Shown here piece by piece: positions 20,264 through 40,684 of a stretch of DNA of 64,000 nt. A program made the position numbers and the translations under genes. The stretch's first letter is position 1. Every line of letters begins with the position of its first letter. The notes under the pieces are model-generated. The model was not told the DNA's origin. It made no database searches and saw only the letters and a list, made by a program, of their open reading frames with translations. The stretch is from Patescibacteria group bacterium (GTDB lineage Bacteria > Patescibacteriota > Minisyncoccia > Phycocordibacterales > Phycocordibacteraceae), in NCBI GenBank assembly GCA_040390125.1, contig JAZJYZ010000001.1:374402-438401 (forward strand). The letters run 5' to 3'.

Positions 20264-20272
20264 AGAGGGCTA

Positions 20273-20301: not shown

Positions 20302-20350
20302 GAAAGGGCGTTTCAAAAGCGGACTTATTTAGTGAAATAGTCATAAAAAT

Positions 20351-20827
20351 ATGGGATTTGAAAGAGCTGTCAAAAGAATAACTCATCTTGCTGCGCCTGT
20401 GGCGGCTTTATCACTTGCAAGTTCCGTACCGTTTTCAACGGCCCCTGAACTCAACTTTGACGACCCTAAAATGATGATTGCATTTGCGAGCTCAAGAGGG
20501 TGGCAAGATAAAGAAATTCATTCTTTCGCCCAGAGGTGCGCTGACGGAGCTTTAGATGGTGGCTCTATCATCGATCATACCTATGCATTTCCTTGTCTTG
20601 GTGAACCACTTAGAGAGGCGACTCATTTAGTTAAACGAACACTAAATTCTCAAGATGGCCCTAAGGTGTGTGACCCTAAGATCCTCGCGGAGTATGGACC
20701 TGTCGAAAATACTGATGGTGCGTATGTAATGACCGGATGGGTGGATTACCCAGTAAAAAACACTGCCGGCGATTGTGTTACAAAACCTAATCCTCTCACT
20801 GAAGTCCTTACATCGGATTCTAAATAA
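20351..20827 (+). CDS. secreted hypothetical protein
   Basis: 158 aa with signal peptide (AAPVAALSLASS). Confidence 0.4.
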   Translation: MGFERAVKRITHLAAPVAALSLASSVPFSTAPELNFDDPKMMIAFASSRGWQDKEIHSFAQRCADGALDGGSIIDHTYAFPCLGEPLREATHLVKRTLNSQDGPKVCDPKILAEYGPVENTDGAYVMTGWVDYPVKNTAGDCVTKPNPLTEVLTSDSK

Positions 20828-20973
20828 AAAGTTATAGTTACGCTTAGAGACGACTAGTATGTGGATAAAGTTTGCATAGATCTGTAACCTGCCGTATACT
20901 CTCTCTAATTTATGCAGCAATTTCCAAACACTATTTTCCGCCACAAGAAGAGTAGTAGTGTTTCTGTTTCATC

Positions 20974-20997
20974 CCTCCCATTGGAGGGTATTTTTTT
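20974..20997 (+). terminator. rho-independent terminator
   Basis: ccctcc catt ggaggg followed by TATTTTTTT. Confidence 0.6.
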
Positions 20998-21003
20998 ATC
21001 TCT

Positions 21004-21981
21004 ATGGAAATAAACCCTTGGGACTTGAAGGCACAAATGCTTACCGCAATTAAAGCAAAGGGAGGCTTTGCAAATTGCCATGCTCATTTTGATAAAGCGT
21101 ATTACATATCCAAAGACGGACTCGACAAGGCGATGGTGGACATGGAGGTGAAGTGGCGAATGTCTGACGATATCAAGCGCAATTCTACTCAAACCGAAAT
21201 AGAGGAGAGAATTCGCCGAGGGTTCGACATGTTGGTTGCCCAAGGATGCACGTATACCTGCACGTTTGTTGATGCATACGATGCAGTTGGACATAAAGCC
21301 ATTGATGCCGCCCTCAAGGTTCGCGAAGAATACAAAGGGAAAATCGAAGTAAAGCTCATCACGCAACCTTTAGGTGGATTGGTGGATGAAACCGCACGAA
21401 AACTTTTTGAAGAAATCAGTGCAAAGGCTGACATCGTGGGCGGACTTCCTTCTAAAGATCGACCAAATGATGCGGAAAATTATGATCTCTTGTTTGGCAT
21501 CGCAAAGAAATTAAATAAGCCAGTGCATGTGCACATTGATCAAGAAAACAATCCTGATGAAAAAGACTCTGAAAAACTCATTGCGGCAGTGAAGAAACAC
21601 GGCTACGAAGGACGTACTGTGGCCATTCACGCAATCTCTGTTTCTGCACAGCCAGCTCCATATAGGAAAGAGATATACAAACAGTTTGCTGAGCTAGGAA
21701 TTGCGGTTGTGGTGTGTCCAACAGCCGCAATTTCAATGCGTCAACTTGATGACAAACTAGCTCCCGTGCATAACTCAATTGCAAACGTTCCTGAAATGCT
21801 CGAGGCAGGTGTTCTTGTGGGGCTTGGAGTCGACAACGTCTGCGATTTTTATGAACCGTTTGTTGATGGAGATATGTGGACGGAGCTCCGATTCCTTCAA
21901 GAAGCTTGTCGATTTTATGCCTTCGATCCATTAGTAGCCATCGCATCGGAAAACGGTCGCAAAATCCTCAACTATGCTTAA
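21004..21981 (+). CDS. metal-dependent amidohydrolase, cytosine-deaminase-like
   Basis: metal-ligand motifs CHAHFD, VHVHID, AIHAIS, GVDNVCD. Confidence 0.55.
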   Translation: MEINPWDLKAQMLTAIKAKGGFANCHAHFDKAYYISKDGLDKAMVDMEVKWRMSDDIKRNSTQTEIEERIRRGFDMLVAQGCTYTCTFVDAYDAVGHKAIDAALKVREEYKGKIEVKLITQPLGGLVDETARKLFEEISAKADIVGGLPSKDRPNDAENYDLLFGIAKKLNKPVHVHIDQENNPDEKDSEKLIAAVKKHGYEGRTVAIHAISVSAQPAPYRKEIYKQFAELGIAVVVCPTAAISMRQLDDKLAPVHNSIANVPEMLEAGVLVGLGVDNVCDFYEPFVDGDMWTELRFLQEACRFYAFDPLVAIASENGRKILNYA

Positions 21982-22021
21982 TTACTACTTTCTACCTTCT
22001 ACTTACTAATAACTAATCACC

Positions 22022-23308
22022 ATGGCAAAACTCTGGCAAGCACCAACAACAAAACTTCATCCTCTCGTCGAAAAATATACTGTCGGTAGTGACTATGAGC
22101 TCGACAAACGTCTTTTGCCGTACGACATAGAGGCTTCCATTGCTCATGCAGAAGCGCTCGTTAAATTAGGCATCCTTACGGAAGATGAGTTTAAACAGCT
22201 CAAAGGTGCATTAGGCGAAATTTTGGCGCTCCATAAGGAGGGCAAATTTGAAATCACTCAAGCTGATGAAGATTGCCACACGGCGATTGAAAACTATCTC
22301 GTTCAAAAATTGGGACAGCTCGGTAAGAAAATTCATACCTGTCGTTCTCGTAACGACCAAGTGTTGGTGGCGACACGCCTCTACACTCGGAAGAAGTTGA
22401 AACAAATCAGTGAAGAAATAATAAAAACACAGAAAGTATTTCTTGAAATGGCAAAGAAGTATGAGTTTATGCCAATGCCGGGCTACACCCACACACGCCG
22501 AGCAATGCCCTCATCTGTTGGACATTGGGCAGCCGCATACGTGGAAGAGCTTATTAACGACCACATGCTCCTCGAGTCTGCATACAAATTGAACGATCAA
22601 AATCCAATGGGTGCAGCCGCAGGGTTTGGTATTAACCTTCCTCTCGATAGGGAACTCACCACGAAGCTTCTTGGCTTTCAACGACTCCAAGTGAATTCGC
22701 TCTATGCAGTGAATAGTCGAGGGCCAACGGAAAGCTACATTTTGTCAGTGTTGACGAAAGCAGTGATGACCTTGGGACGCCTTGCCAACGAAATGATTTG
22801 GTTTACGACGCCTGAATTTAATTTCTTTTTCCTTCCAAACGAATTCACTACAGGTTCTTCAATCATGCCTCAGAAAAAGAATCCCGATGTATTCGAGATT
22901 CTGCGTTCCAACGTGAATGTCATCGTTGCCTTGCAGACGCAGGTTAAAGACATTTCTAAAAATCTCATCTCCGGCTACAACCGTGACACCCAGCTCACCA
23001 AAGAGCCTCTTATAAAAGGAATGGGTATTGCACGAAGAAGTTTTGAAATAGTTGCGCTCGTGATGGCAGAAGTAAAGCCAAACGAAGAGAAACTGATGAA
23101 GTCACTAGAACCAGAGTTCTTTGCAGTACATGAAGCCAACCGTCTTGTGAAGGAAGGTATGACATTCCGTGATGCGTACCAACACGTGAAAGAGCATCTT
23201 GCAGAGCTCGAAGTGCCAGATCCGGTAAAGGCCATTAAAGAAGTGGTGTCGATTGGAGGTCCGGGGAACCTTCAACTCGATAAATATGTTCTCTCCACAC
23301 CGCTTTAA
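22022..23308 (+). CDS. argH: argininosuccinate lyase
   Basis: fumarate-lyase signature GSSIMPQKKNPD; 428 aa. Confidence 0.9.
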   Translation: MAKLWQAPTTKLHPLVEKYTVGSDYELDKRLLPYDIEASIAHAEALVKLGILTEDEFKQLKGALGEILALHKEGKFEITQADEDCHTAIENYLVQKLGQLGKKIHTCRSRNDQVLVATRLYTRKKLKQISEEIIKTQKVFLEMAKKYEFMPMPGYTHTRRAMPSSVGHWAAAYVEELINDHMLLESAYKLNDQNPMGAAAGFGINLPLDRELTTKLLGFQRLQVNSLYAVNSRGPTESYILSVLTKAVMTLGRLANEMIWFTTPEFNFFFLPNEFTTGSSIMPQKKNPDVFEILRSNVNVIVALQTQVKDISKNLISGYNRDTQLTKEPLIKGMGIARRSFEIVALVMAEVKPNEEKLMKSLEPEFFAVHEANRLVKEGMTFRDAYQHVKEHLAELEVPDPVKAIKEVVSIGGPGNLQLDKYVLSTPL

Positions 23309-23321
23309 AAGCGGTGTTTTT
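23296..23321 (+). terminator. rho-independent terminator overlapping the argH stop
   Basis: acaccgctttaaaagcggtgt followed by TTTTT. Confidence 0.6.
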
Positions 23322-23373
23322 ATTAGAGAGGTTCTTACATTATCAAATTAAAAATTAAAATTAAATAAAACAT

Positions 23374-24219
23374 ATGCATCCAGCAATTGATCTCATCGAG
23401 CCAAAAGACTATGACGCAGCCGTCACAAAACTTCGTGAATTTTTTAGAATGAAAGGTTTCATTGAAACGCCAATTCAGCATCGCTTGAGTATTCTTGCCG
23501 CATGCGAAGACCCGTTTACCATCGCAACCTTTAATTACGCAGGTAACGTGTGGCCTCTTCCGCAAACAGGGCAGATGTGGCTCGAATACGAATTACTTAC
23601 GAAGCCCGATGTGCCAGGCTACTACTGCATCACCACGAGCTTCCGCAATGAAGCAAAACCCATTCCAGGGCGTCACAACCTCATCTTCCCGATGTTTGAG
23701 TTTGAAACCCACGGAGGTTTGGATGTACTCCAAAAGCTTGAGACCGAACTTCTAGAGTTTATGGGCTTTGGCACCGCTTCTTCGTTTAAGGAACTTGAGT
23801 ACGCTGATGCTACCGCCAAATACGGCACAAAAGATTTGACTGCTGTCGAGGAGATAAAAATGCAGGAGGATTTTGGACCAGTGGTGTTTCTGCGAAATTT
23901 TCCACAATACACATCGCCATTCTGGAATATGAAGAAGGAAGGGGAGTTTGCGAAGAAAATTGACGTTATTCTCTACGGCATTGAAACCATAGGTTCAGCT
24001 GAGAGAAGTATTGACCCGAAGGAAATGCGTGAGCTCTTTAACACCATTTCGGACGGTATGTACGCAAAGACAATCTTTGCACAATTCGGGCAGGCGAGAG
24101 TTGAAGAAGAGCTTGATAAGTTCTTGTCCTACAAATTCTTTCAACGCTGTGGTGGAGGTATTGGGCTCACTCGTATGATTCGTGCCATGAAATTAGCGAA
24201 GCTCATTCCAAGCTCTTAG
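23374..24219 (+). CDS. class II aaRS catalytic-core paralog, archaeal-type asparagine synthetase A (AsnA)-like
   Basis: 281 aa without an anticodon-binding domain; motif 2 (SFRNE) and motif 3 (GGGIGLTRM) of class IIb aaRS. Confidence 0.5.
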   Translation: MHPAIDLIEPKDYDAAVTKLREFFRMKGFIETPIQHRLSILAACEDPFTIATFNYAGNVWPLPQTGQMWLEYELLTKPDVPGYYCITTSFRNEAKPIPGRHNLIFPMFEFETHGGLDVLQKLETELLEFMGFGTASSFKELEYADATAKYGTKDLTAVEEIKMQEDFGPVVFLRNFPQYTSPFWNMKKEGEFAKKIDVILYGIETIGSAERSIDPKEMRELFNTISDGMYAKTIFAQFGQARVEEELDKFLSYKFFQRCGGGIGLTRMIRAMKLAKLIPSS

Positions 24220-24263
24220 TACTTATTGACTCGTTTGTATACTGGTCGTATATTATTTCCATT

Positions 24264-24479
24264 ATGCCAAGAACTAGTGAATCTGCGTCTGTCAGAAGAA
24301 TTCTACCTTCTGGAGAAAAACTTGTTCGAGTGGTCTTAGGAGAAAAAATCATAGAATTTAAAGTAAAAGGTCCTGTTGTAAAAACATTAGATCGCAGAGA
24401 TTCATCTATAACAGACGCAGAAATTCATAGAGGATGGAGGGTTGCTGCTGGACTTGAGGCTCGAAATGCAGGAGCTTAA
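24264..24479 (+). CDS. hypothetical small ORF within a long non-coding stretch
   Basis: 71-aa ORF only; weak. Confidence 0.15.
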   Translation: MPRTSESASVRRILPSGEKLVRVVLGEKIIEFKVKGPVVKTLDRRDSSITDAEIHRGWRVAAGLEARNAGA

Positions 24480-24763
24480 TTGCGTGCTCGCAGGTGATAT
24501 CCATTGCCTAATTCGCACGAATGGTGGAATAGTTTGGGAATTTGACCTCTAGGGGTATGAGTTTTATAATTAAAAGATGATTGGAGAGGGAGTTACCAGA
24601 GAAGTATTGCTAGGCAGGCTCACAAAAGCCGCTCGAAGAGGTCGTGGTGCACGTACTCCTGTGCAGGAATCCGCACGAAAAGTAGAAATAAACCAGGTAC
24701 TTCGACAGTTGGACTCCTCTTTGCGAGTGCAATAAATCTTTCGTAATCAGTTATACTTGAGCG

Positions 24764-25804
24764 ATGTCAGGTGATTTATCGCTGTACAGAAAATACCGTC
24801 CTCAGGTCTTTAAGGATGTCTTGGGGCAAGACCATGTGGTTAAGGTGCTTGAGGGAGCGCTTAAAGAAAAGCACCCTGCACATGCATATCTTTTTATAGG
24901 TTCTCGAGGAACAGGAAAGACCAGCGTGGCTCGCATCCTTGCACGAGAGCTCGGTGCAACTGAGCGTGATATTTATGAAATGGATGCAGCATCGAACACG
25001 GGCGTTGATAACATTCGCCAGCTTCGTGAAGAAGCGTTTGTGATGCCGTTTGAGTCTCCTCGAAAGGTATACATCATCGACGAAGTGCACATGCTCTCAA
25101 AAGGTGCTTTCAATGCGTTTTTGAAACTTCTTGAAGAGCCCCCTTCGCATGTGGTGTTTATTCTTGCAACTACTGAACTGGAAAAAGTTCCTGAAACTAT
25201 TCAGTCACGTTGCCAAGTGTTCACATTCAAAAAACCAACGCAAAAAGTATTGGTGGAAATGGTAACAAGGGTGGCAAAAGCGGAAGGCTTTACGCTTGAG
25301 CCCGCCGCAGCTGAGCTTATTTCACTTCTTGCTGACGGATCATTCCGTGATGCTCATGGCACCTTGCAAAAAATTCTTGCCTCTTCTTCGGACAAAAAAG
25401 TAAGTGTTGAAGAAGCAGTGCTAGTTACGGGGGCACCCCGTTTGGAGCTTGTAGAAAAAGTTATTACCGATTTGAGTGAAGGAAAAGCTGATGGTGCACT
25501 TCAAGCAGTGGGGGAGGCAACGAAGGCGAATGCTGACATGAATGTGTTTGCAATGCTTCTTCTTCAGCGCTTGCGCATTCTTCTTATGCTTCGCTACTCG
25601 CCTGAATTTGGCAAAGAACTTTCGAGCGACCTTGCCGATACTGACCGAGCATTTCTTGAATCTCTCGCAAAAGACGCAAAATCAAAAATAAATTCAGAAA
25701 CCTTGCGTAAATTCATTCTTGCCTCTATCGAAATCCCTCGCTCTCCCGTTCCTCAGTTGCCTTTAGAGCTTGCAATAATGGAGCTCTCAGCACCGAAGGT
25801 GTGA
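24764..25804 (+). CDS. dnaX: DNA polymerase III subunit gamma/tau (short form)
   Basis: AAA+ Walker A GSRGTGKTS; YRPQxFxDVxGQ start; 346 aa. Confidence 0.9.
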   Translation: MSGDLSLYRKYRPQVFKDVLGQDHVVKVLEGALKEKHPAHAYLFIGSRGTGKTSVARILARELGATERDIYEMDAASNTGVDNIRQLREEAFVMPFESPRKVYIIDEVHMLSKGAFNAFLKLLEEPPSHVVFILATTELEKVPETIQSRCQVFTFKKPTQKVLVEMVTRVAKAEGFTLEPAAAELISLLADGSFRDAHGTLQKILASSSDKKVSVEEAVLVTGAPRLELVEKVITDLSEGKADGALQAVGEATKANADMNVFAMLLLQRLRILLMLRYSPEFGKELSSDLADTDRAFLESLAKDAKSKINSETLRKFILASIEIPRSPVPQLPLELAIMELSAPKV

Positions 25805-25805
25805 G

Positions 25806-25877
25806 GTTGTAGGTGATAGGGAATAGTTAAAACTGGAAATTTCAGCCTAAAACCTGTAACCTATCACCTGTAACCTA
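25806..25877. repeat. dispersed short repeat copy with inverted partner (gttgtaggtgatagg … cctatcacctgtaacct)
   Basis: aaacctgtaacctatcacctgtaacct; the upstream segment is its near reverse complement. Confidence 0.5.
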
Positions 25878-25889
25878 GAAGTTAGGTAA

Positions 25890-25960
25890 TGGGGAATCGT
25901 CTAATGGTAGGACAGAGGCCTTTGAAGCCTTTAATTGGGGTTCGAATCCCTGTTCCCCAG
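25890..25960 (+). tRNA. tRNA-Gln (anticodon UUG)
   Basis: U1:A72 acceptor TGGGGAA/TTCCCCA; anticodon stem GAGGC/GCCTT with loop CTTTGAA; T-loop TTCGAAT; discriminator G; close to E. coli tRNA-Gln. Confidence 0.8.
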
Positions 25961-26147
25961 CAATGACATAAAACAGGCCACTCTATGTGGCTTTTGTTTT
26001 ATGTAATCATTGCGTGGGAAAGAAAGCGAATAGTTTCGCTTTCGTCAGGATTCGAAAAGCGGAGGTATACTTTTGTTTGTGCCTCACAAGGCAAAAGTAC
26101 CGAGCTGGGGTCGCGAGAAATTTCAGTCAAGAAATTTACTTGTGACC

Positions 26148-26162
26148 GAATCCCTGTTCCCC
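26148..26162 (+). repeat. att-like copy of the tRNA-Gln 3' end (gaatccctgttcccc)
   Basis: 15/15 identity to tRNA 25944-25958. Confidence 0.6.
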
Positions 26163-26189
26163 CTAGAAATCTTGGCTGTCTCCATTCCT

Positions 26190-26206
26190 GAATCCCTCTT
26201 CCTCAG
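26190..26206 (+). repeat. degenerate att-like copy (gaatccctcttcctcag)
   Basis: 15/17 identity to the tRNA 3' end. Confidence 0.45.
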
Positions 26207-26279
26207 TTAGTAGAGTTGGAGTTCTGGACGCCCCAAGAGCGTCATTTTAAATGCTATTATTTGTAGTAACTAAAGTGCT

Positions 26280-27665
26280 ATGCAAAAAAAGATAGCTTTT
26301 CTGAAGACCTCCGATTTAGTCTTGGACATTGATAATCCTAGATTTGGTGAACTTTATACGGGAAGTAATAAGGAAGAAGATCTCATAGAATATTTACTAT
26401 TCAACGAGTCGGCAATTACTTTAGTCGATCGACTAGCTTCAACAAAGGAATTCTATACAGATAAACCATTACTAGTTTTTGATAACGGTAAAAAGAAAAT
26501 AGTCAAAGATGGAAATAGAAGATGCGCCGCAGTGAAAGCTTTGCTGAACCCTACCAAATTCGGTATCACTTCTCCCGCATATAAAATTAAGGAGCTCCCG
26601 GTCGTTGTGTATACAAATAAAGCAGAAATAGATAAACGAATTATTGAAGAACATACCAACAGTATGTTCAGAGAATGGGACAGAATTGCAAAAGCAATTG
26701 AAGTTTATAGGCAGTTTGAATCTGGCTCCTCTATAGAATCCATGGAGGAGATTGACAGTAAGCCTGCGGATTTAATTAAATTAGCAAGTTTCTACTATGA
26801 AGCTGTAAAAATCGGAGGTGATGATTTGAAAAAGCTTCTGCGAAAAGGTAGGGGTGGTACTGGAGGAAAAACAACTATATTTGAAAGATTATTTAAATAC
26901 TCAAACGCTTGTGGTTATCGATTTAAAAATAAACCTGACTATGTTGTTGAAATAACCGATAACAAGAAGTTTAAAAGTTACATCAAAAAAGTAGTTGGGT
27001 ATTTGACGAAGAACCCTTCAACTACATATAGAGATGTTGATGAAAAGAACCCAAAGTTTTTTACAGAAATAGGCCTTTCCAATCTTGCTACTCAAAACTC
27101 TTCTGGATCATCTACGCCAACCACAGTAAGCACATCGCAAACAAAAGGCGCCGCTCTCGCCGCAGCATCAATTCCAAAACATACAAATAAAGCCCAACCT
27201 AAACCTGAGTACAATCGAACAATACCTGGGCCATTAAAAAAAGTTATTGACGAATGTTACGGACTAAACGAACTAACTTTTACTAATTCAAAAATTGCCA
27301 TGACCCGGGTGGTTTTTGAATGTTGTTTAAAATATATTGTGGAAGAAACGAAATATAACGGCATTCTTTTAAAAGATTACAGCTATTTTAATAATATTTT
27401 TCCAAATGGAACTCCAACAGGTAGAAAGTGGACAAATTTTACAAAATTAAAAAATTTGTTTGAGGAGCTAATAAAAAACGCGGGGAAAAAGCAAGCATTT
27501 AAGAGCTTTGATATAGAGATACCTCATCAAATAATTCATAACTACAATATTGCAGGTCTTGTGAAAGAGGCAAAAACTCTCTGTGACAACTTAATACCTC
27601 TAGTCGAATTCATGCTGGAAACAGAAGCCAACCTTCTAAATAGTATTGATACACAAAAATTATAG
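26280..27665 (+). CDS. ParB-like nuclease (ParBc/Srx-fold) domain protein with a large uncharacterised C-terminal region
   Basis: N-terminal LVLDIDNPRF and KDGNRRCAAVKAL (DGxxR ParB/DUF262-type motif); Ser/Thr/Pro linker; 461 aa; AT-rich. Confidence 0.5.
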   Translation: MQKKIAFLKTSDLVLDIDNPRFGELYTGSNKEEDLIEYLLFNESAITLVDRLASTKEFYTDKPLLVFDNGKKKIVKDGNRRCAAVKALLNPTKFGITSPAYKIKELPVVVYTNKAEIDKRIIEEHTNSMFREWDRIAKAIEVYRQFESGSSIESMEEIDSKPADLIKLASFYYEAVKIGGDDLKKLLRKGRGGTGGKTTIFERLFKYSNACGYRFKNKPDYVVEITDNKKFKSYIKKVVGYLTKNPSTTYRDVDEKNPKFFTEIGLSNLATQNSSGSSTPTTVSTSQTKGAALAAASIPKHTNKAQPKPEYNRTIPGPLKKVIDECYGLNELTFTNSKIAMTRVVFECCLKYIVEETKYNGILLKDYSYFNNIFPNGTPTGRKWTNFTKLKNLFEELIKNAGKKQAFKSFDIEIPHQIIHNYNIAGLVKEAKTLCDNLIPLVEFMLETEANLLNSIDTQKL

Positions 27666-27666
27666 T

Positions 27667-28530
27667 ATGACTTCAAGATTTTATTCACCACTACGTTATC
27701 CTGGAGGGAAAAATAAACTAGCAAAATTTGTAGCTTTGATATGTGAAAAAAATAATATTAATGGACACTATGTTGAGCCTTATGCAGGCGGAGCTTCTGT
27801 CGCTCTATATTTATTGCTAAATGGATATGTAAAAGAGGTCACAATTAATGATTATGATCGTGCAGTTTATGCTTTTTGGTATTCAATTTTGAATTATACA
27901 GAAGAGTTTTGTAAAAAAATATCTTCAACAGAGATAAATGTTGAAAATTGGAAAAAGTTTAAACAGGTTCATTTAAATAAAGAAAAAGCTCCTTTATTTG
28001 ATTTAGGATTTGCTACATTTTTTCTAAATCGTACAAATAGATCTGGAATTATAAACGGAGGAATTATTGGAGGGATCAATCAGCAAGGAGAATATAAAAT
28101 AGATTGTCGTTTCAATAAAGAAGAGTTGATTAAACGCATACGTTTAATTGAGAAGAATCGTGCCAATATACATCTATCTAAATTAGATGCGTTAGATCTT
28201 ATAACTAAAATCCAAAAAAATAAAGGAAATAAAAACACTATTTTCTATTTTGATCCACCTTATTACTTAAAAGGTCCTTCGCTATACATGAACCACTATA
28301 AGCATGAAGACCATAAAGCAGTAAGTGCAGAAATACAAAAAATAAAAAATACCAGATGGATTGTTTCTTATGACAATACTCCTGAGATTAAAAAATTGTA
28401 CTCGATTTCTAAGAAAAAAGAGTATACATTTTTTCATACTGCTTACGAAATAAGGGAAGGTAAAGAAATATTATTTTTTAGTAAAGGATTATCTATTCCT
28501 AGAGTGAGTCGACCAACCATGTTGGCTTAA
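27667..28530 (+). CDS. DNA adenine methyltransferase, Dam (D12 class, alpha group); alternative start at 27646 overlapping the upstream gene
   Basis: motif I LRYPGGK…EPYAGGAS, motif IV DPPY, FxNRxxRSG region. Confidence 0.85.
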   Translation: MTSRFYSPLRYPGGKNKLAKFVALICEKNNINGHYVEPYAGGASVALYLLLNGYVKEVTINDYDRAVYAFWYSILNYTEEFCKKISSTEINVENWKKFKQVHLNKEKAPLFDLGFATFFLNRTNRSGIINGGIIGGINQQGEYKIDCRFNKEELIKRIRLIEKNRANIHLSKLDALDLITKIQKNKGNKNTIFYFDPPYYLKGPSLYMNHYKHEDHKAVSAEIQKIKNTRWIVSYDNTPEIKKLYSISKKKEYTFFHTAYEIREGKEILFFSKGLSIPRVSRPTMLA

Positions 28531-28728
28531 TGTTGACTAGAGAGCTAGAAAAATTTCTTTGTTCTCAAAAATTAACGAGTTTTATTGATTAATTAAGATT
28601 CCAACTTCGTACCAAATTCCCAGTCAGTTTGAGATAGGTTCGGACTCCGAGGAGCATCCATTTTACTATTTACAAAGTTCATCCCATCTGACAGGGTTAA
28701 GAGGTGGTTTATTAGTTAAGAAAATAAA

Positions 28729-28941
28729 ATGGCAAAAACTTATCACTCAAAAGAAGAAATGATTAAACGAATGACTGAAGTTCAGAACGAACTGTCGATT
28801 TTGGCAAGTAAAGGCTCTCTCAGTGAAAATGGTTCAAGAACCGCTGACGAAGAGCTCAGGTTTCAAGAACTTTCTCAAGAACTATCTGCTCTCGATATGA
28901 CTCTTAAAGCTATGTCAGGGAACGGAGGTTCAGCCTTATAG
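28729..28941 (+). CDS. hypothetical small coiled-coil protein
   Basis: 70-aa ORF. Confidence 0.3.
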   Translation: MAKTYHSKEEMIKRMTEVQNELSILASKGSLSENGSRTADEELRFQELSQELSALDMTLKAMSGNGGSAL

Positions 28942-28942
28942 T

Positions 28943-29158
28943 ATGCGGAAGAATACATTTCTAATCATAATTGGCGTTATAATTGTTGGATCGGCTTTTT
29001 ATTGGTATTCATATCGTCCGTCACACATAAGGTCTCAATGTTTAGCAGAGGGAGAACTAAATCCAACTGCGATTGGTATTTCTGATGATGCCGCTAGAAC
29101 CAAATTTATAAATGACTACTACCAAACCTGCCTTCACAGATTCGGCTTGGATAAATAA
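28943..29158 (+). CDS. hypothetical small membrane-anchored protein
   Basis: 71 aa; N-terminal TM; 1-bp gap from the previous ORF. Confidence 0.3.
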   Translation: MRKNTFLIIIGVIIVGSAFYWYSYRPSHIRSQCLAEGELNPTAIGISDDAARTKFINDYYQTCLHRFGLDK

Positions 29159-29235
29159 TCATTTCGAGGAGCGTCAAAATATTAATCTTAAAAGCATCAG
29201 GGAGGGCTTGTGTGGGACTCGGTGGAGAATTATCT

Positions 29236-29253
29236 GAATCCCTGTTCCCCAGC
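29236..29253 (+). repeat. att-like copy of the tRNA-Gln 3' end (gaatccctgttccccagc)
   Basis: 18/18 identity to tRNA 25944-25961. Confidence 0.7.
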
Positions 29254-29368
29254 TGATTTTTAGGCGTAAAAATCATGTCGAAATTAGCAAATTTCGACCA
29301 GGTGGTTTTTGACATAGGTTCCCCCGCCCGAGACCCATGAATCAAGGTTTGACAAGAGAGTATCTGAA

Positions 29369-30340
29369 TTGTACGGTGAAAGAATTATGGTAGGCGAATC
29401 GTCTAAGGAAACCCGCTCCAAAGTCAGCCTGACGGGAATGGAAGATTGGAAGTGGACTGAGGCGGACGTTGATCACTGGTCTCGAGAGCAAAAACCCAAG
29501 CGCTCGTATCAGGACGAAGTTGTTGACAGAGTCTTAGAGCTGAGGGGCAGATTCGAAGTTCAGCAATACGGAGCACTCTCTCAGGATCCAAAGCGTTACC
29601 CACTCTACGTTTTAAGATCTCCAAATTTTTCTCCCGACAAAAAAACGATTCTGATCACGGGTGGTGTACACGGTTATGAGACCAGCGGTGTTCAGGGTGC
29701 GCTCGGATTTCTCGAGCGTGCGGCTGGACAGTTTGACGGAAAGTTTAATTTTGTGTGCGTGCCTTGTATCAGTCCCTGGGCGTACGAGACGATTAATCGT
29801 TGGAATGCGCAGGCATTTGACCCGAATCGTTGGTTCCGTGACGGGAGTCCGGTTGAGGAGTGTCAGCTTTTCTTGCGTGCGATGAAGGACGTCAAGCCCT
29901 TTGCGCATTTTGATCTTCACGAGACGACCGACACCGACAACAGCGTTTTCCGACCAGCGAAAGGCGAGCGGGATGGAAAGGTCGAGGAGTGGTCAGAGAT
30001 TCCCGACGGATTTTATGCCGTTGGCGATAGCAAGAATCCGCAGGCAGGTTTTCAGAAAGCTATCATCGAGTCGGTTAGGAAGGTAACCCACATCGCCAAA
30101 GCTGATGAAAATGGGAACATTATCGGAACTCCGCTCGAGCAAGAGGGAGTGGTCAACTATGATTTGAAGGAGCTCAATTTGTGCGCCGGCTTTTCAGACG
30201 CTGCATATACTACGACCACAGAAGTATATCCCAATAGCCCCGGGGTCACCGATGAGATCTGCATTGATGCTCAGATTGCCGCTATCGTGGGTGGCTTAAA
30301 CTATCTTTTGAAGCAGGAAGAATCCTCTGATGCACAGTGA
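29369..30340 (+). CDS. succinylglutamate desuccinylase/aspartoacylase (AstE/AspA, M14-like) family zinc hydrolase
   Basis: ITGGVHGYETSG (GGxHGxE) and HFDLHET metal-ligand motifs; 323 aa; noticeably GC-rich. Confidence 0.6.
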   Translation: MYGERIMVGESSKETRSKVSLTGMEDWKWTEADVDHWSREQKPKRSYQDEVVDRVLELRGRFEVQQYGALSQDPKRYPLYVLRSPNFSPDKKTILITGGVHGYETSGVQGALGFLERAAGQFDGKFNFVCVPCISPWAYETINRWNAQAFDPNRWFRDGSPVEECQLFLRAMKDVKPFAHFDLHETTDTDNSVFRPAKGERDGKVEEWSEIPDGFYAVGDSKNPQAGFQKAIIESVRKVTHIAKADENGNIIGTPLEQEGVVNYDLKELNLCAGFSDAAYTTTTEVYPNSPGVTDEICIDAQIAAIVGGLNYLLKQEESSDAQ

Positions 30341-30351
30341 GAGTGATGACC

Positions 30352-30369
30352 GAATCTCTGTTACCCAGC
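30352..30369 (+). repeat. degenerate att-like copy (gaatctctgttacccagc)
   Basis: 16/18 identity to the tRNA 3' end. Confidence 0.5.
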
Positions 30370-30507
30370 TGAATTGGAGTTTTTATAAAAACGAAGTTTT
30401 TCAATAAAAAGCTTCAATTCATGTCACGGACGTCCCACAAGACGCCAAGACCAGCGTGATACACGTTCCGACTCCAAGGAAGGTCACTGAGGTACAATGA
30501 CGGATAG

Positions 30508-30939
30508 ATGGAAACCTACAACTGGTACTCACAGCTTATTAAGCCGACATGGGCTCCACCTGCATGGCTTTTTGGACCAGTGTGGACAGTGCTTTATGCA
30601 ATTATTGCGGTTACGTACGGAACCATATTTTATAAAGTATTCACTAAAGAGATTCCGTGGATCGTGGCGCTTCCGTTCGCTCTCAATCTTATTTTCAATT
30701 TTGCATTTACACCAATACAATTTGGACTAAAAAATAATTTGCTTGCCTCGATAGATATTTTACTTATTGTTGGCACACTTATCTGGGCGCTCTATGCACT
30801 CTATTCTTTTGGTCTCACACTTCACATTGAGACTGGCGCTCCCACGTATGCGTGGATCATCTACGCCAATATTCCATATCTTTTGTGGGGAATTTTCGCT
30901 ACATGTTTGCAGCTCACGATTACGTATATGAACAAATAA
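30508..30939 (+). CDS. tspO: TspO/MBR family translocator protein
   Basis: KPxWxPPxWxFGPVWTxLY motif; 5 TM; 143 aa. Confidence 0.8.
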   Translation: METYNWYSQLIKPTWAPPAWLFGPVWTVLYAIIAVTYGTIFYKVFTKEIPWIVALPFALNLIFNFAFTPIQFGLKNNLLASIDILLIVGTLIWALYALYSFGLTLHIETGAPTYAWIIYANIPYLLWGIFATCLQLTITYMNK

Positions 30940-30942
30940 TCT

Positions 30943-31293
30943 ATGCGTGTATGGGATATACACCCAAAGCATTTGTGTAGAAAGCACCTACTCGCAGAAC
31001 ATCGAGAGCTTCATGGACTTTGGAATATTCTTACAAAACATAAAGGCACAGGGGGATATTCGCGCCATCCGGAGACATTGCGCTGGGTAGGAAAACAAAA
31101 AGCACTCTACAATCGGCACGAGGCATTAGTTAAGGAATTCACTCGTCGTGGCTATAAGCATCACACGCCTCTCAATAAACAGTTTGCAAAAGGGTCTGGT
31201 AGTCAGAAGGTATTTATTAACACTCTCAAAGAGCAGGAGGCAATACTTAAACAGAAGTCATGCGAATGTCTCCTTCGAGAGGTATCGAAATAG
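30943..31293 (+). CDS. pyrimidine dimer DNA glycosylase (T4 endonuclease V / DenV-like)
   Basis: HLLAEHRELHGLW and ALYNRHEALVKEFTRRGY align to T4 EndoV HLMAEYRELPRVF and [20 protein letters not shown]; 116 aa. Confidence 0.6.
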   Translation: MRVWDIHPKHLCRKHLLAEHRELHGLWNILTKHKGTGGYSRHPETLRWVGKQKALYNRHEALVKEFTRRGYKHHTPLNKQFAKGSGSQKVFINTLKEQEAILKQKSCECLLREVSK

Positions 31294-31351
31294 TTCCTGA
31301 TGTTCCAAAAGACAAAAGAGCACCTGAGTTAGGCTCAATAAATTCCACCCC

Positions 31352-31393
31352 CCCCAACAAAGCTAGACTTAGCTTATGAATGATAGAAAATCT
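31352..31393 (+). repeat. left copy of a 42-bp imperfect direct repeat (includes a truncated duplicate of the gene start ATGAATGATAGAAAATCT)
   Basis: 37/42 identity with 41727-41768. Confidence 0.7.
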
Positions 31394-31397
31394 CTCC

Positions 31398-31874
31398 TTA
31401 ACCCCGCCTTGCTGCATCAATAGCAGCGACGTCTATTTTTTGCATTGTCATCATTGCATCGAAAGCACGCTTTGCTTCGGCGCCACCAGCTGCAAGGGCT
31501 TCAGTAAGGGTGCGTGGCGTTATTTGCCACGATAGTCCCCAGCGGTCCTTGCACCATCCGCATTCACTTTCTTTGCCACCGTTTTCCACTATTGCGTTCC
31601 AGTAGCGGTCGGTTTCTTCCTGACCGTCCGTCGCAATCTGAAAGGAAAATGCCTCACTTTGTTTAAATACAGGGCCACCATTCAAGCCGATGCAGGGAAT
31701 TCCGCAGACACTGAACTCTACCGTTAGCACATCGCCTTTCTTGCCACTCGGAAAATCACTAGGCGCATAAAAGACATTAGTTACCTTACTATCAGGGAAA
31801 GTAGCGGCATAAAAGTTCGCTGCGGCTTCCGCATTCTTATCAAACCAGAGGCAAATTGTATTTTTTGGTGTCAT
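31398..31874 (-). CDS. VOC-family protein (PhnB / '3-demethylubiquinone-9 3-methyltransferase'-like, PF06983)
   Basis: CGWCKDRWGLSWQI motif; 158 aa. Confidence 0.7.
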   Translation of the reverse strand: MTPKNTICLWFDKNAEAAANFYAATFPDSKVTNVFYAPSDFPSGKKGDVLTVEFSVCGIPCIGLNGGPVFKQSEAFSFQIATDGQEETDRYWNAIVENGGKESECGWCKDRWGLSWQITPRTLTEALAAGGAEAKRAFDAMMTMQKIDVAAIDAARRG

Positions 31875-32009
31875 TTTTGTGTGCAGTATTATTTTAGTAT
31901 TTTACAGCGTTTCAGTACAATGTACAAAATAAATAAAGATGTCTCATTTTCGAAGAACCGACCGAGACGCTCATTTAGTTTGGATTCTGTGCCATGATGA
32001 GTAGTAGCT

Positions 32010-32531
32010 ATGAATAAATTCTTTCCTCTTATTGCATTGGCACTTCTCCTCATCATTGGTGGGGGAGTCTGGTATTACAATGACGCACAAAAGACTCCGT
32101 CCGTAATCGGCTGCACCATGGAAGCAAAGATTTGCCCCGATGGTTCAGCTGTTGGACGCACAGGCCCGCAATGTGAATTTTCTGCCTGTCCAGAAGCTGG
32201 AGGAGTGACATCTTATTCATCGGGTATCCGAGGAATAGTGTTAGCGGGGCCAGTGTGCCCAGTGGAGCGTAATCCTCCCGACCCAAACTGTGCTGACAGA
32301 CCAATTGAAACAAATGTTTCTGTATACAAAGCATCAGATATTACCCGTGCGCTCGTTGTAACAACAGGCGCACAGAATGGCACATTTGAGATGAAGCTAC
32401 CGGCAGGTGAGTATGTGGTGATGAGTGGCCCATATGGAGTACCGCTTCCACGATGTAGCGATGTTTCAGTAAGTGTCAAAGAAAATGCGTATACGAACGT
32501 ACAAGTATCGTGCGACACAGGAATACGGTAA
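32010..32531 (+). CDS. membrane-anchored secreted hypothetical protein (Cys-rich, beta-rich)
   Basis: 173 aa; N-terminal TM. Confidence 0.4.
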   Translation: MNKFFPLIALALLLIIGGGVWYYNDAQKTPSVIGCTMEAKICPDGSAVGRTGPQCEFSACPEAGGVTSYSSGIRGIVLAGPVCPVERNPPDPNCADRPIETNVSVYKASDITRALVVTTGAQNGTFEMKLPAGEYVVMSGPYGVPLPRCSDVSVSVKENAYTNVQVSCDTGIR

Positions 32532-32650
32532 GGCACGAGAGTTGTGATTAACTCGACGTCCCTAATTTCAATAAAATTTTTGGAAATGAGGAACGCTATA
32601 TATTGATAATAGGGGTAAGTGGCCGATAGTGTTACCCTACCCTTACTTTC

Positions 32651-33091
32651 ATGGCTATCATACAACCGACCCCAGTGAACGGGTTTTATAGAATTTTGCG
32701 TTGGTGCATAGGAATACCTGTTGTGTATCTTATGCTGGTACCTATCGTGATTGCCGATATTTTTTTGGAAATCTACCACCATGTAGCATTCCCCATGTTT
32801 GGTATTAAAAAAGTCAATCGACATGAATATATTCGCATACGGGATCGGGCAGAACTCTCGTACCTTACCTGGTATGAGAAATTAAATTGTGCCTATTGTG
32901 GTTATGTGAACGGCTGGCTTCATTACGCATCAGTTATTGCAGGACGTACGGAAAATTACTTTTGCGCAGTGGCACACCTTGAAACACGAGGATACGTTCC
33001 TTCAGAACACGAAAAATCATTTGTTAAGTATGGCGATGAGGCCGCACTCCGTCGTCGTTATGCACGCCACGAGGAAGATTTTGGTGGATGA
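32651..33091 (+). CDS. hypothetical membrane protein with CxxC
   Basis: 146 aa; preferred over the antisense 203-aa ORF. Confidence 0.35.
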   Translation: MAIIQPTPVNGFYRILRWCIGIPVVYLMLVPIVIADIFLEIYHHVAFPMFGIKKVNRHEYIRIRDRAELSYLTWYEKLNCAYCGYVNGWLHYASVIAGRTENYFCAVAHLETRGYVPSEHEKSFVKYGDEAALRRRYARHEEDFGG

Positions 33092-33239
33092 AATAAGAAA
33101 CTGTCTGCCATCTGGTAGTTGTGACCAAATACCTACCTCAAATCAAAAATGAAATTAATGTCGTTTTTGAGTGTATTAGCTAGGGTGAGTGGGCATGGCT
33201 CCCTCACACCATGGTCATTACTTACTAAATCATACAATA

Positions 33240-33803
33240 ATGAAAAATAAATTAATGCACATATCAAAGAAGTCTCGAATGATTGCAGCAACAGCTTTTG
33301 CTCTTGGACTTGCAGTAGTTGGAGGAAACTTCGCGTACGCTAATACTGTTTCGACTGGAGACAAGCACAATCCGATGAGTTCTCTTGTGTCTGCTATTGC
33401 AACCAAGTTTAATCTGAACTCGGCAGAGGTGCAGACTGTCGTTGACGATGTCATGAAGACAGAACGCACCACGCACAGGCTTCAGATGCAGACAAATCAA
33501 GCAACCAGGCTTGCTAAAGCAGTAACAGATGGAAAGCTTACACAAGCGCAGGCTACTCTTATTACTGCAAAAGTGGCGGAAATGAAAGCTTCAATGGAAG
33601 CGAATCGAACCGCCAATGAAAATCTGACTCAAGCGGAGCGTAAGACTAAGATGGAGGCTGAGCAGGCAAGTCTTAAAGCATGGGCAACTGCAAACAATAT
33701 TCCCATGAACTTTCTTTCTCAGTTTGGAGGAAAAGGACACGGAGGATTTGACGGACATAGGGGTCCTGGTGGAAACGGCGACGCACCAAGGCAAGGTAAT
33801 TAA
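33240..33803 (+). CDS. secreted alpha-helical hypothetical protein (start at internal Met; the track ORF begins at 33189)
   Basis: signal peptide MKNKLMHISKKSRMIAATAFALGLAVVG; Gly-rich tail. Confidence 0.4.
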   Translation: MKNKLMHISKKSRMIAATAFALGLAVVGGNFAYANTVSTGDKHNPMSSLVSAIATKFNLNSAEVQTVVDDVMKTERTTHRLQMQTNQATRLAKAVTDGKLTQAQATLITAKVAEMKASMEANRTANENLTQAERKTKMEAEQASLKAWATANNIPMNFLSQFGGKGHGGFDGHRGPGGNGDAPRQGN

Positions 33804-33916
33804 ATACTTTCTCTCGGACCTCTCTAATAACAGCTTTTCTACAAAGCTTGTACACAAAACCCCCGTGAGGGGGTTTTGTGGTGTACCTATTAGGTGTAAT
33901 AAAAGTGGGATGCCAG

Positions 33917-34495
33917 ATGTATTATGAAGTTGTGGGTCAACCAGATTCACCGATATGCGATGAACAAATCGCCAAACAGGTACAAGAAGGAGATAGAGAG
34001 GCCTTTGGCTTTTTGGTCGACCGCTATCAAAGCAAGTTGCAGCGGTATGGAACTAAGTTTCTCTCAAGGAAAGAAGACATTGAAGATATTGTGCAGGACG
34101 TTTTTATGAGTGCATATAAGAACATAAAAAGTTTTCATACCGACGAGCGTTTTAGTCCATGGATATATCGCATTGCACATAATGCCTTTGTAAATGGCTT
34201 ACGAAAAAAAGAAAGATCACCACTTATAACAATCGACTTCGACACCCTTGTGTCGCATGCAATCTACGAAGACCCAGCAGAATCAGAACGTGAACAAAAG
34301 GAAACACGAGATATGTTAGACAAGGTGCTGACACGTATCAATCCACGGTATCGAGAAATTTTAGTTCTACATTACTTTGAGGAAATGCCGTATCGGGACA
34401 TTGCGGAGGTTTTAAAGATTCCTATAGGTACCGTTGGGGTACGCATTCGACGAGCAAAGGAAGCGCTCAAAAAAATACTTACAAAAACTATATGA
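33917..34495 (+). CDS. ECF-type RNA polymerase sigma factor (sigma-70 family); the track ORF starts at 33878
   Basis: region 2 (FGFLVDRYQSKLQRYG…DIVQDVF) and region 4 HTH (MPYRDIAEVLKIPIGTVGVRIRRA). Confidence 0.85.
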   Translation: MYYEVVGQPDSPICDEQIAKQVQEGDREAFGFLVDRYQSKLQRYGTKFLSRKEDIEDIVQDVFMSAYKNIKSFHTDERFSPWIYRIAHNAFVNGLRKKERSPLITIDFDTLVSHAIYEDPAESEREQKETRDMLDKVLTRINPRYREILVLHYFEEMPYRDIAEVLKIPIGTVGVRIRRAKEALKKILTKTI

Positions 34496-35247
34496 ACCAG
34501 CAAAAAAAACCTATAAGTATTAAAGATAAAATTCTTACTGATATCAAATCAGGGGAAATTACAATGCGTCCGAAGATTTACTTTACGCTCAAAATCGCAG
34601 CTCTCATTGTAGGTGCGTTTGCAGTGGTGGCTATTTCAATCTTTATCTTCAATTTTATTCTCTTTACTATCCGTATCAGCGGTCAGGACAATCTACTTGG
34701 GTTTGGCCCTAGAGGATGGGAAGTGTTTGTACGTCATTTTCCCTGGCACTTGCTCGTGCTCGATATCGCACTAATTATTGGTTTGCAATGGCTTCTTCGA
34801 CAATTTAAATTTGGTTATAAAATTCCGATACTGTATCTCCTCCTTGGTCTTTTATGCGTTACTGCTGTTGCCGGTTTTGCACTAGAGAGAGGGACACCTT
34901 TTAATGATCGCCTGTATCAGATGCGTGGGCAGGGGCTACCTTCACCTCTCGGAGGTTTCTATGACCGGGCCAATCGACCACCCCCTCTTGGTGGCGGTGT
35001 GTGTAGATGCACTATTACCGCCATCACGGGCAATATACTCACTGTGCAGGATAGTCGGAGTACCACTACTCTTTCAGTTATCCTTCCTGCAAATGACCCA
35101 AGAGCTACGACAACATCTCTTAAGGTTGGAGATATAGTGCTCGTAGCAGGAGACCAACAAGACGGAGTAATTAACGCTTTCGGGGTACGAAAGATATCGC
35201 CTGATGACCCCGGCCCTCGCCGGTTTACTCCTCCTTCTCCTCGTTAA
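34492..35247 (+). CDS. putative anti-sigma factor / membrane protein cotranscribed with the ECF sigma
   Basis: stop/start overlap with the sigma gene; 3-4 TM; Pro/Gly-rich C-terminus. Confidence 0.35.
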   Translation: MNQQKKPISIKDKILTDIKSGEITMRPKIYFTLKIAALIVGAFAVVAISIFIFNFILFTIRISGQDNLLGFGPRGWEVFVRHFPWHLLVLDIALIIGLQWLLRQFKFGYKIPILYLLLGLLCVTAVAGFALERGTPFNDRLYQMRGQGLPSPLGGFYDRANRPPPLGGGVCRCTITAITGNILTVQDSRSTTTLSVILPANDPRATTTSLKVGDIVLVAGDQQDGVINAFGVRKISPDDPGPRRFTPPSPR

Positions 35248-35416
35248 CGCAAACTTCTCAGATGAAATAAATCCGAGGGGGTTTTTGTATTAAAGAATGT
35301 GAGTAGTAGAACAGTAGGAATTATCGCACTAGCAGTTGTAATCATCGTCACTTTGGTCTTGTTTTTCAATAGTCCGATCGAAATATAGATTTATTTTAAT
35401 TAATGTACTACGTCCG

Positions 35417-37219: not shown

Positions 37220-37222
37220 TTC

Positions 37223-40682: not shown

Positions 40683-40684
40683 AC

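Follow-up and report, generated by a model that had tools for sequence, protein, structure and literature searches.

A tRNA-Gln insertion hotspot in a Patescibacteria genome and an apparently undescribed structured mini-element whose termini mirror the adjacent gene end

Patescibacteria have tiny genomes with few recognizable mobile elements, and the exchange of defense and accessory genes among them is consequently poorly understood. Here, we analyzed a 64,000-nucleotide stretch of a Patescibacteria genome (assembly GCA_040390125.1, contig JAZJYZ010000001.1, positions 374,402 to 438,401; hereafter the window, whose numbering is used throughout), in which the 3' end of tRNA-Gln is repeated downstream of the gene. 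The region anchored at this tRNA is a defined gateway for exchange that varies from 0.6 to more than 18 kb among relatives and holds, in the window, a predicted defense system and a recently transferred peptidase cassette. Directly behind the tRNA lies a structured mini-element that combines base-pair covariation, no match in Rfam and termini mirroring the adjacent gene end, and is apparently undescribed. The hotspot is an already known kind of object; the mini-element appears new.

The tRNA-Gln 3' end is repeated downstream of the gene

The features on which the analysis turns are the following; related loci are denoted by L and a number.

24764-25804, + strand: dnaX (clamp-loader gamma/tau), the left anchor (Pfam DNA_pol3_delta2, E = 1.6e-33)
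25890-25961, + strand: tRNA-Gln(ttg), the target gene (ARAGORN; Rfam tRNA, 61.5 bits)
25966-26003, + strand: terminator-like hairpin and T-run right behind tRNA-Gln (terminator scan; stem 25975-25993 plus TTGTTTTATG)
26012-26165, + strand: structured mini-element, or "stub" (fold, covariation; covariance model, 95 bits)
26190-26207, + strand: copy 3 of the tRNA end (15/18), 42 nt past copy 2 (repeat search)
28606-28624, + strand: sixth, decayed copy, TTCGTACCAAATTCCCAGT (alignment with L007, L004 and the tRNA end of L019)
28625-28655, + strand: conserved post-tRNA flank, CAGTTTGAGATAGGTTCGGACTCCGA (first 26 nt equal to L007 15745-15770)
29236-29253, + strand: copy 4 (18/18; repeat search)
29254-29346, + strand: two small hairpins and a TTTGACATAGG motif, with a terminator-like hairpin at 29277-29298 (homologous to the sequence right after tRNA-Gln in L022)
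30351-30369, + strand: copy 5, CGAATCTCTGTTACCCAGC (repeat search)

A search of the window with the last 18 nt of tRNA-Gln (GAATCCCTGTTCCCCAGC), allowing up to three mismatches, gave five matches, all on the + strand, at 25944 (the gene itself, 0 mismatches), 26148 (3), 26190 (3), 29236 (0) and 30352 (2). Only 0.01 were expected by chance, none of 100 dinucleotide-preserving shuffles reached five, and independent repeat finding in the window recovered the same five-member family. A preliminary description of this DNA, according to which the tRNA end recurs four more times in direct orientation, is therefore upheld. The repeated core comprises the last 18-19 nt of the gene (25943-25961), and copy 2 matches it at 16 of 16 positions once the preceding C is included (CGAATCCCTGTTCCCC, 26147-26162). 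An inverted copy of the same end is present at 26012-26053, and no tRNA-end copies were found beyond copy 5 within 30370-44245. At the post-tRNA position, relatives have a comparable hairpin whose sequence differs.

The 3' end of dnaX (25731-25758) also holds AATCCCTC...TTCCTCAGTT, which is identical to copy 3 (26190-26209) save for a 9-nt insertion and is only marginally above chance (7 of 500 shuffles attained the dnaX score for copy 3). The idea that copy 3 was duplicated from the 3' end of dnaX was rejected, the similarity being marginal.

Base composition, measured as GC in 300-nt windows, changes sharply along the ladder, from 0.27-0.39 over 26.3-28.9 kb to 0.48-0.55 over 29.3-30.3 kb; the upstream core at 20-26 kb lies at 0.39-0.49, mostly 0.42-0.46. 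The contrast between segments in the preliminary description is thus reproduced.

Gene content behind tRNA-Gln differs among relatives

Relatives were identified by a dnaX-based scan with one genome per species, which yielded 80 Paceibacteria/Patescibacteria loci, all from metagenome-assembled genomes (MAGs) and read over ±10 kb around the anchors. In nearly all of these approximately 80 loci dnaX is followed by tRNA-Gln. Extra tRNA-end copies are confined to a closer clade with dnaX amino acid identities of ~74-97% (L004-L007, L009, L010, L012, L014 and L017); L040, a more distant locus, likewise has one. The gene content that follows tRNA-Gln is unlike in each close relative, and includes toxin-antitoxin-, MazG-, protease- and RhuM-like open reading frames (ORFs), names given by inspection of the sequences alone.

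The modules between tRNA and flank can be placed by comparison with L019, in which tRNA-Gln is joined directly to the flank CAGTTTGAGATAGG (CAGTTTGAGATAGGTT...), near-identical to the flank behind the window's decayed copy; this is an empty-like state, which L047 also shows. In L004 and L007, the order is tRNA, inserts, last copy and then a flank that is near-identical (L004) or identical over 26 nt (L007) to that behind the decayed copy of the window. From this order it follows that 25962-28624, the stub together with the islet behind it, was inserted where the tRNA would otherwise meet its usual flank, the core being duplicated. The same small modules occur in differing order among L004, L006 and L010, with the switches at repeat copies. 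These comparisons argue that the tRNA-Gln 3' end is a genuine insertion hotspot with att-type repeats, as had been proposed. An empty site with tspO directly after tRNA-Gln, the form that had been anticipated, was not encountered: in L037, TspO lies 1.1 kb away with a phosphotransferase-like ORF between, and the close relatives have no tspO there.

Not until window 44.2-46.0 kb is synteny with L007 and L009 restored. An ABC-F orthologue lies ~5 kb past tRNA-Gln in L009, and in L047 tRNA-Gln, the mini-element, an 82-amino acid (aa) GIY-YIG-like ORF and ABC-F all fall within 0.6 kb, a gap that measures 18.3 kb in the window. Because ABC-F forms the right flank in L047 and L009 and is found in the window at 44246, the flexible region is, on this evidence, 25962-44245 (~18 kb), from tRNA-Gln to the conserved ABC-F gene.

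44246-45706, + strand: ABC-F ATPase, right anchor of the hotspot (orthologues in L047 and L009)

The tspO and denV genes, which had been taken for housekeeping genes that resume behind the islets, are instead cargo, and in L004-L006 nothing that corresponds to the content of 30370-44245 lies within 10 kb of tRNA-Gln.

Truncated tRNA copies also occur. L014 and L017 have a second copy of tRNA-Gln without its first ~16 nt, and fragments of the gene are scattered near the intact one in L006 (11920-11939 and 12133-12165) and L004 (12310-12345), covering the first 20 nt or internal positions ~17-50; they indicate repeated rearrangement. ORFs often open inside a repeat copy (MTESLFPS...; L005 12215, L006 12324, L009 12123, L007 15721 and window 30346-30372), because ATGACCGAATCCCTGTTCCCCAGC reads as a start codon and seven further codons; such starts are probably spurious N-terminal extensions of true genes.

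A covarying mini-element follows tRNA-Gln

The 186-bp stub between the tRNA and the AT-rich islet had been described as a decayed islet. It is instead a structured mini-element that is conserved in at least 10 species (for example in L003/L012, L004, L005, L007, L009, L010 and L040), and that occurs also behind tRNA-Leu and topA. It consists of ~150 nt, of which a scaffold makes up ~130 nt, and in its closing helix an inverted copy of the 3' end of the adjacent gene is paired with a direct one. The left terminus (IR-L), which is preceded by tRNA-Gln and then the terminator-like hairpin, is the reverse complement of the last ~19 nt of the tRNA and is composed in the window of GGGAA (26016-26020), a hairpin (26022-26043) and CAGGATTC (26046-26053); in the window, L010, L012 and L047 the hairpin splits IR-L between its acceptor-strand and T-stem parts. 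In the 5' to 3' direction, IR-L is followed by AAAG, P2 (with a GGA/GA internal loop) carrying an apical P3, GG, P4 (GGTCG/TGACC) around a long P5, and the right terminus (IR-R), the direct copy at 26147-26162 that constitutes copy 2. The P3 apical hairpins are always there, with unrelated sequences.

Compensatory substitutions are already apparent in the alignment of the window stub with that of L003. A consensus structure was obtained with RNAalifold from seven tRNA-Gln examples, covariation was counted in a nine-sequence alignment, and a covariance model was built later. Among the seven examples, 97% of cells are paired, a value that none of 500 shuffles equaled; in the nine-sequence alignment, 18 of the 29 pairs show compensatory changes and 94% of cells are paired (0/500 shuffles; ~35% in slid controls). 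The same fold was recovered independently by RNAalifold and by single-sequence minimum free energy (MFE) prediction, the window element giving -60.6 kcal/mol with z = -5.6 on the + strand versus -3.6 on the - strand, and G.U cells outnumber A.C cells (19 versus 5). These predictions suggest that the folding strand is the tRNA-sense strand, with selection for a single-strand fold as either RNA or single-stranded DNA (ssDNA). The element is found at a constant position in loci whose dnaX identities span 52-97%.

Rfam 15 (run at E ≤ 1 on 25700-30600 and at E ≤ 10 on 8100-8420) holds no family that matches the mini-element in these intervals; only the tRNA genes match, and other hits overlap a tRNA or lie far below the gathering scores. 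Partial scaffolds precede several downstream tRNA-end copies (L004 12377-12471, L007 15686-15745, L010 11572-11619 and window 30342-30369), and the covariance model gave partial hits in L047, L014, L006 and L004. The window example is an nhmmer match that takes in copy 5, which is preceded by GTGATGACC, similar to the scaffold end GTGACC.

Several identities were tried for the element and set aside. A tmRNA or tmRNA fragment, prompted by a GGATTCGAA motif and by a GGGGGTG start in L014, was rejected in the absence of an ARAGORN or Rfam hit, a tag frame or a T-arm; the motif is explained by the inverted T-loop/T-stem. Hammerhead and other small ribozymes and the canonical K-turn do not fit the junction sequences, and Rfam is silent on them. 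A primer-binding-site analogy, in which the element would complement the mature tRNA 3' end with its CCA, fails because the copies reproduce the genomic sequence instead of one with a CCA tail, and because the duplication in L040 extends 18 nt past the tRNA.

The mini-element occurs behind other gene ends

A second target gene in the window carries its own copy of the element, so that the element stands behind both tRNA genes of the 64 kb.

8324-8405, - strand: tRNA-Leu(caa), second target gene (ARAGORN; Rfam)
8158-8283, - strand: second mini-element copy, retargeted and without cargo (nhmmer E = 7e-5; covariance model, 91.8 bits; fold z = -5.5)

Here, IR-L is GTGCGGGAGGGACTCG and IR-R is CGAG-CTCCTCCGGCACA, both of which match the tRNA-Leu 3' end; the 13-mer CTCCTCCGGCACA is found in the window only at 8161 and 8323. 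IR-L and IR-R share matched 3-nt deletions that keep the helix, and in L148 (80% ParB identity), where the acceptor and T stems of tRNA-Leu differ, both termini track the change. Three independent assemblies of relatives end just upstream of parB, at or near the position of the window's tRNA-Leu (L145 1-96, L146 1-54 and L147 1-30). A repeat at this place, or variation between strains, is suggested by these ends, and relatives may thus have a second hotspot at tRNA-Leu. The left context of copy 4 (GAGAATTATCT) shows a tentative resemblance to the left context of the L006 copy at 13287 (GAAAATTATCC) and to the 3' arm of P5 in the tRNA-Leu element.

Two further examples extend the pattern. In L040, a perfect 39-nt direct repeat surrounds the element and runs 18 nt past a divergent tRNA-Gln. 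In L025 (1776-1960, - strand), a full-length covariance-model match lies at the 3' end of topA, a protein-coding target, with a ~25-nt direct repeat of the gene end (TTGCCCCAA[C/A]CACAA[C/T]CCACA); no scaffold remnant was seen in the relA-topA spacer of the window, the site occupied in L025. The termini therefore track their target in the T/C66 variants of tRNA-Gln, in L040, at tRNA-Leu (window and L148) and at topA (L025). Its link to target duplications at three unrelated gene ends identifies the mini-element as the probable terminus of an insertion element, or else as a minimal element complete in itself, and the partial scaffolds ahead of several downstream copies support this.

The neighbors of the element are tRNA-Gln and the 461-aa gene of the AT-rich islet in the window, 5-FTHF cyclo-ligase at the window's tRNA-Leu, relA/topA in L025, and the GIY-YIG ORF and ABC-F in L047. 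The GIY-YIG-like ORF (82 aa, L047 11423-11671) stands right behind the mini-element in this relative with a nearly empty hotspot, its family being judged from the N-terminal sequence only. A metagenome scan with a 24-mer found just two contigs, one of them the L005 contig.

The islets carry a predicted defense pair and a mobile peptidase cassette

26280-27665, + strand: PD-Lambda-5 gene A-like protein, 461 aa, with a ParB-like N-terminus (PADLOC PD-Lambda-5_A models)
27667-28530, + strand: PD-Lambda-5 gene B, D12-class N6-adenine DNA methyltransferase (PADLOC, Pfam)
28729-29158, + strand: two small ORFs of 70 and 71 aa (no family)
29347-30351, + strand: M14-family metallocarboxypeptidase cassette, GC ~0.50, gene at 29387-30340 (database homologues)

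The AT-rich segment of ~3 kb had been described as one unit with a ParBc protein. The Pfam search of the 461-aa protein was without any match; instead, 21 PADLOC PD-Lambda-5_A models of comparable length match it over residues ~1-120 only (best E = 7e-11), together with PHROG 3694 (E = 6e-19). Gene B matches PADLOC PDLC04018 (PD-Lambda-5_B) with E = 7.4e-120 over 279 of 291 positions, and Pfam MethyltransfD12 with E = 1e-17. The segment resolves into two units, and the AT-rich islet is a predicted PD-Lambda-5 defense pair with its right boundary at the decayed copy 28606-28624; the 70- and 71-aa ORFs behind it gave no match in Pfam, PADLOC or PHROG. PD-Lambda-5 has been described as a compacted system resembling restriction-modification plus abortive infection (RM+Abi-like), with broad protection (Vassallo et al. 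2022; PMC9519451). The window pair shares its two-gene organization, with a D12-type methyltransferase beside a ~460-aa partner, and differs in that gene A is matched over the N-terminal ~100 residues alone, in a different host phylum, and is known here from sequence.

The GC-rich segment had been assigned to an AstE/AspA-family hydrolase. This Pfam match is below threshold (E = 0.003) and the homologues are named M14 metallocarboxypeptidases; identities are 78-90% in a few Patescibacteria and 64-71% outside them, where the named homologues are mostly from Bdellovibrionota. The cassette (29347-30359) is 90.5% identical at the nucleotide level to L006 18103-19115, compared with 84% for dnaX, and it is missing from exactly that place in the otherwise collinear L005, which makes a clean indel between L005 and L006. 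Synonymous divergence (dS) is 0.32 for M14 versus 0.91 for dnaX, which implies that the cassette was transferred once the lineages had separated. Between the window and L006, homology stops within copy 5, after CGAATC, so that of the two repeat-copy boundaries previously proposed for this segment the right one holds, whereas the left edge, at 29347, is not at copy 4.

Logan contigs (run SRR26324623) are identical to the window over 17654-29303 and from 30289 onward; they stop 50 nt past copy 4 and restart inside the 3' end of M14, before copy 5. The Logan data also contain an M14 variant (P0001) that is 90% identical, and coexisting cassette variants probably break the assembly graph at 29303/30289. 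Excision polymorphism was rejected as the cause, with 29303 in unique sequence, 30289 in the M14 gene and neither at a repeat copy.

Origin of the repeats and of the mini-element

On balance, we consider it probable that the copies are att-type repeats left by serial insertion of small modules at tRNA-Gln, and that the scaffold of the mini-element is the likely attachment-site arm of a family mobilized in trans. Modules would have been inserted one by one at the segment from the T-loop to the tRNA's 3' end, or at a previous copy of that segment, each insertion bringing a replacement 3' end and shifting the old one downstream, with the PD-Lambda-5 pair, the two small ORFs and the M14 cassette as cargo. 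As no module encodes a recombinase, any such enzyme would have to act in trans. The scaffold would most likely serve as the attachment-site arm, several downstream copies being preceded by scaffold remnants, and the junction of an excised circle would be expected to read ...GTGACC + CGAATCCCTGTTCCCCAGC + AATGACATAAAAC. If the mini-element is indeed the attachment or guide module of such a family, it would account for integrase-less islets and point to target-programmable recombination.

A number of observations weigh against this account. Its catalytic step is placed in trans and its recombinase is putative: inspection of 63 window ORFs, with Pfam run on the 10 unassigned ones, found no tyrosine or serine recombinase, in agreement with the preliminary description. 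The classical integrase model predicts neither the inverted core copy nor pair covariation across an attP arm. Copy 3 is ambiguous in origin (local alignment score 24 to the tRNA 3' end versus 23 to the dnaX 3' motif), and the scaffold remnant at copy 4 amounts to a 9-nt resemblance. In viral contigs, none of the 59 matches of the 15-mer GTGACCGAATCCCTG runs into a tRNA end, and a gapped scaffold pattern gave no nhmmer hit among the at least 120 loci listed. No repeat copy coincides with the left edge of the M14 cassette, and the cassette lies upstream of tRNA-Gln in L012 and between unrelated genes in L006; together these positions imply that not all M14 movements came from recombination at the copies, and that other processes act too. 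The comparison set consists of ~12 MAG-derived genomes.

The recombinase search also covered all ORFs of at least 120 aa in the window and in the 10-kb flanks of the 80 loci, which were scanned for tyrosine- and serine-signature motifs. The one match, which lies upstream of dnaX (L009 6412-7482), was weak, limited to box I and not taken as an integrase; this crude scan leaves room for distant or novel recombinases. The islet ORFs are all otherwise assigned or shorter than 75 aa, and no reverse transcriptase (RT), DEDD or serine recombinase, or TnpB/IscB gene adjoins any copy of the mini-element. By inspection of the sequences, the boundaries have no GTTRRRY core, the repeated core being CGAATCCCTGTTCCCCAGC, and motif scan and Pfam found no IntI-like ORF.

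Several features of the element would suit a host non-coding RNA, derived from a tRNA trailer or minihelix-like and matured by tRNA enzymes, which would be homogenized by gene conversion while the islets arrived by transformation and homologous recombination. Covariation is strong and strand-specific with invariant unpaired nucleotides, the fold is better on the tRNA-sense strand, and IR-L reads as acceptor 5' strand, hairpin and T-stem 5' strand, as in a minihelix (window, L010, L012 and L047); the constant position across the range of dnaX identities, the tRNA-Leu copy without cargo and its matching 3-nt deletions with an intact helix point the same way. We nevertheless judge this origin unlikely, given the scaffold behind topA in L025, where a ~25-nt gene-end duplication accompanies it and there is no tRNA-like helix, and the 18 nt duplicated past the tRNA end in L040, a DNA-level signature. 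The patchy distribution in relatives, the terminator-like hairpin between tRNA and element, the lack of a consistent promoter and the lack of an Rfam family likewise speak against it. Were the element a host RNA, it would still be new, as a structured RNA that is conserved and associated with tRNA genes, and the covariance model can be used in complete genomes and transcriptomes to tell this reading from an att-module. A programmable recombination module, either a single strand folded in the manner of attC or CTX attP or a guide-like RNA, whose closing helix would display the target to a trans-encoded recombinase, is another idea to which we give little weight. It would explain why the termini are re-matched to three targets with an inverted and a direct copy each time, such that the helix reproduces the target duplex sequence, why it is pairing, not sequence, that selection maintains, and why there are partial scaffolds ahead of several downstream copies and no recombinase in cis; yet it comes with no recombinase candidate and no GTTRRRY-type core or IntI, it would require some means of re-templating IR-L, most downstream copies are without a complete scaffold, and the examples number only ~12. 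A bolder formulation is doubtful, although not far-fetched: the scaffold would be the core of an undescribed class of minimal, recombinase-less insertion modules of Patescibacteria, its helix, made of the two copies of a gene's last 16-20 nt, encoding a re-programmable target (tRNA-Gln, tRNA-Leu or topA), with an enzyme in trans that would recognize the folded scaffold, as ssDNA or as an RNA guide, and load cargo behind essential genes.

Simpler origins of the ladder fare worse. Tandem duplications of tRNA-Gln that decayed from the 5' side, with content exchanged by homologous recombination between the flanks and no site-specific step, would suit the second tRNA copies of L014 and L017 without their first ~16 nt, the internal tRNA fragments of L006 and L004 and the movement of the M14 cassette independently of the copies. 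A 5'-truncated target copy is, however, also expected from site-specific integration with a longer identity block, and the copies start at one T-loop position behind recurring left contexts (mostly GTGACC, with GTGATC at L007 15727; window copy 4 and L006 13287 are preceded by AATTATC[T/C]). As the architecture is moreover identical at tRNA-Leu and topA and the insertions are precise relative to L019, tandem duplication seems very unlikely. Chance similarity or an assembly chimera is barely credible: although the Logan contigs break at 29303 and restart at 30289, leaving the M14 join without a single independent contig, both contig ends agree with the window, the same architecture is present in ~10 independent assemblies, and the chance expectation for the ladder is 0.01.

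The favored account, serial insertion with mobilization in trans, can be set beside several known systems. In Prochlorococcus, tRNA-adjacent islands carry scattered partial tRNAs from successive integrations (bioRxiv 10.1101/2020.12.28.424599). In Islander-type tDNA islands and tycheposon islands (PMC4383910; bioRxiv 10.1101/2020.12.28.424599), one end is formed by an intact tRNA, and the boundaries of successive insertions are marked by its 3' part in direct repeats, with newer elements pushing older ones inward and with degenerate remnants and cargo in a streamlined genome; the window resembles these islands in each respect. It differs from them in that neither an intact integrase nor a fragment of one was found, whether in the window or in 10-kb flanks from ~80 relatives, in that the modules are very small (0.15-2.6 kb), and in that a folded scaffold with covarying pairs and an inverted core copy makes up the att-proximal arm. 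Of 41 defense hotspots in E. coli, tRNA loci account for 18, and for some hotspots no mobile element could be detected in the majority of occupied cases (PMC10121019). The window shares with the defense hotspots of E. coli and Pseudomonas a fixed site between core genes and a varying content of defense genes and cargo, here PD-Lambda-5 and a second methylase pair; unlike them, it lies in a Patescibacteria genome of less than 1 Mb, with islet boundaries marked by tRNA-end copies and scaffold remnants.

Structural parallels are found elsewhere. In integron attC and CTX attP sites, a single strand folds through an imperfect inverted repeat into a stem that displays the core for recombination, the terminal structure being variable, and in CALIN arrays cassettes of the same orientation can be without a local integrase. 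Compared with the general features of those sites, the mini-element has no GTTRRRY/RYYYAAC core, IntI or dif-like site; its stem is the 3' end of a tRNA or other gene and changes with the target, its internal scaffold is conserved in sequence, and, unlike in attC arrays, most cassette boundaries are without a complete site. With the bridge RNA of IS110, the omega RNA of TnpB/IscB and retron non-coding RNA, the mini-element shares a structured scaffold, here of ~150 nt, and target-matching segments joined to it, and its ends close the molecule by pairing, like the a1/a2 repeats of retrons. Unlike in these guide RNAs and retrons, the target-matching segments of the mini-element are 16-20 nt long and present the same segment in both orientations.

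Other genes of the flexible region and of the window

30370-44245: rest of the flexible region, with TspO, a DenV-like glycosylase, a PhnB-like protein, ECF sigma/anti-sigma factors, MacAB-type efflux, a Dcm methylase with a 344-aa partner, and others

At 39711-41719, the gene of a Dcm-type cytosine methylase (PF00145) precedes an ORF of 344 aa that has no Pfam match, and the two may form a second restriction-modification pair in the flexible region. Elsewhere, the window encodes a T4SS-pilin-domain protein (4439-5377) and DprA (14058-14912); DprA handles incoming ssDNA, which is relevant if the mini-element works as a folded single strand.

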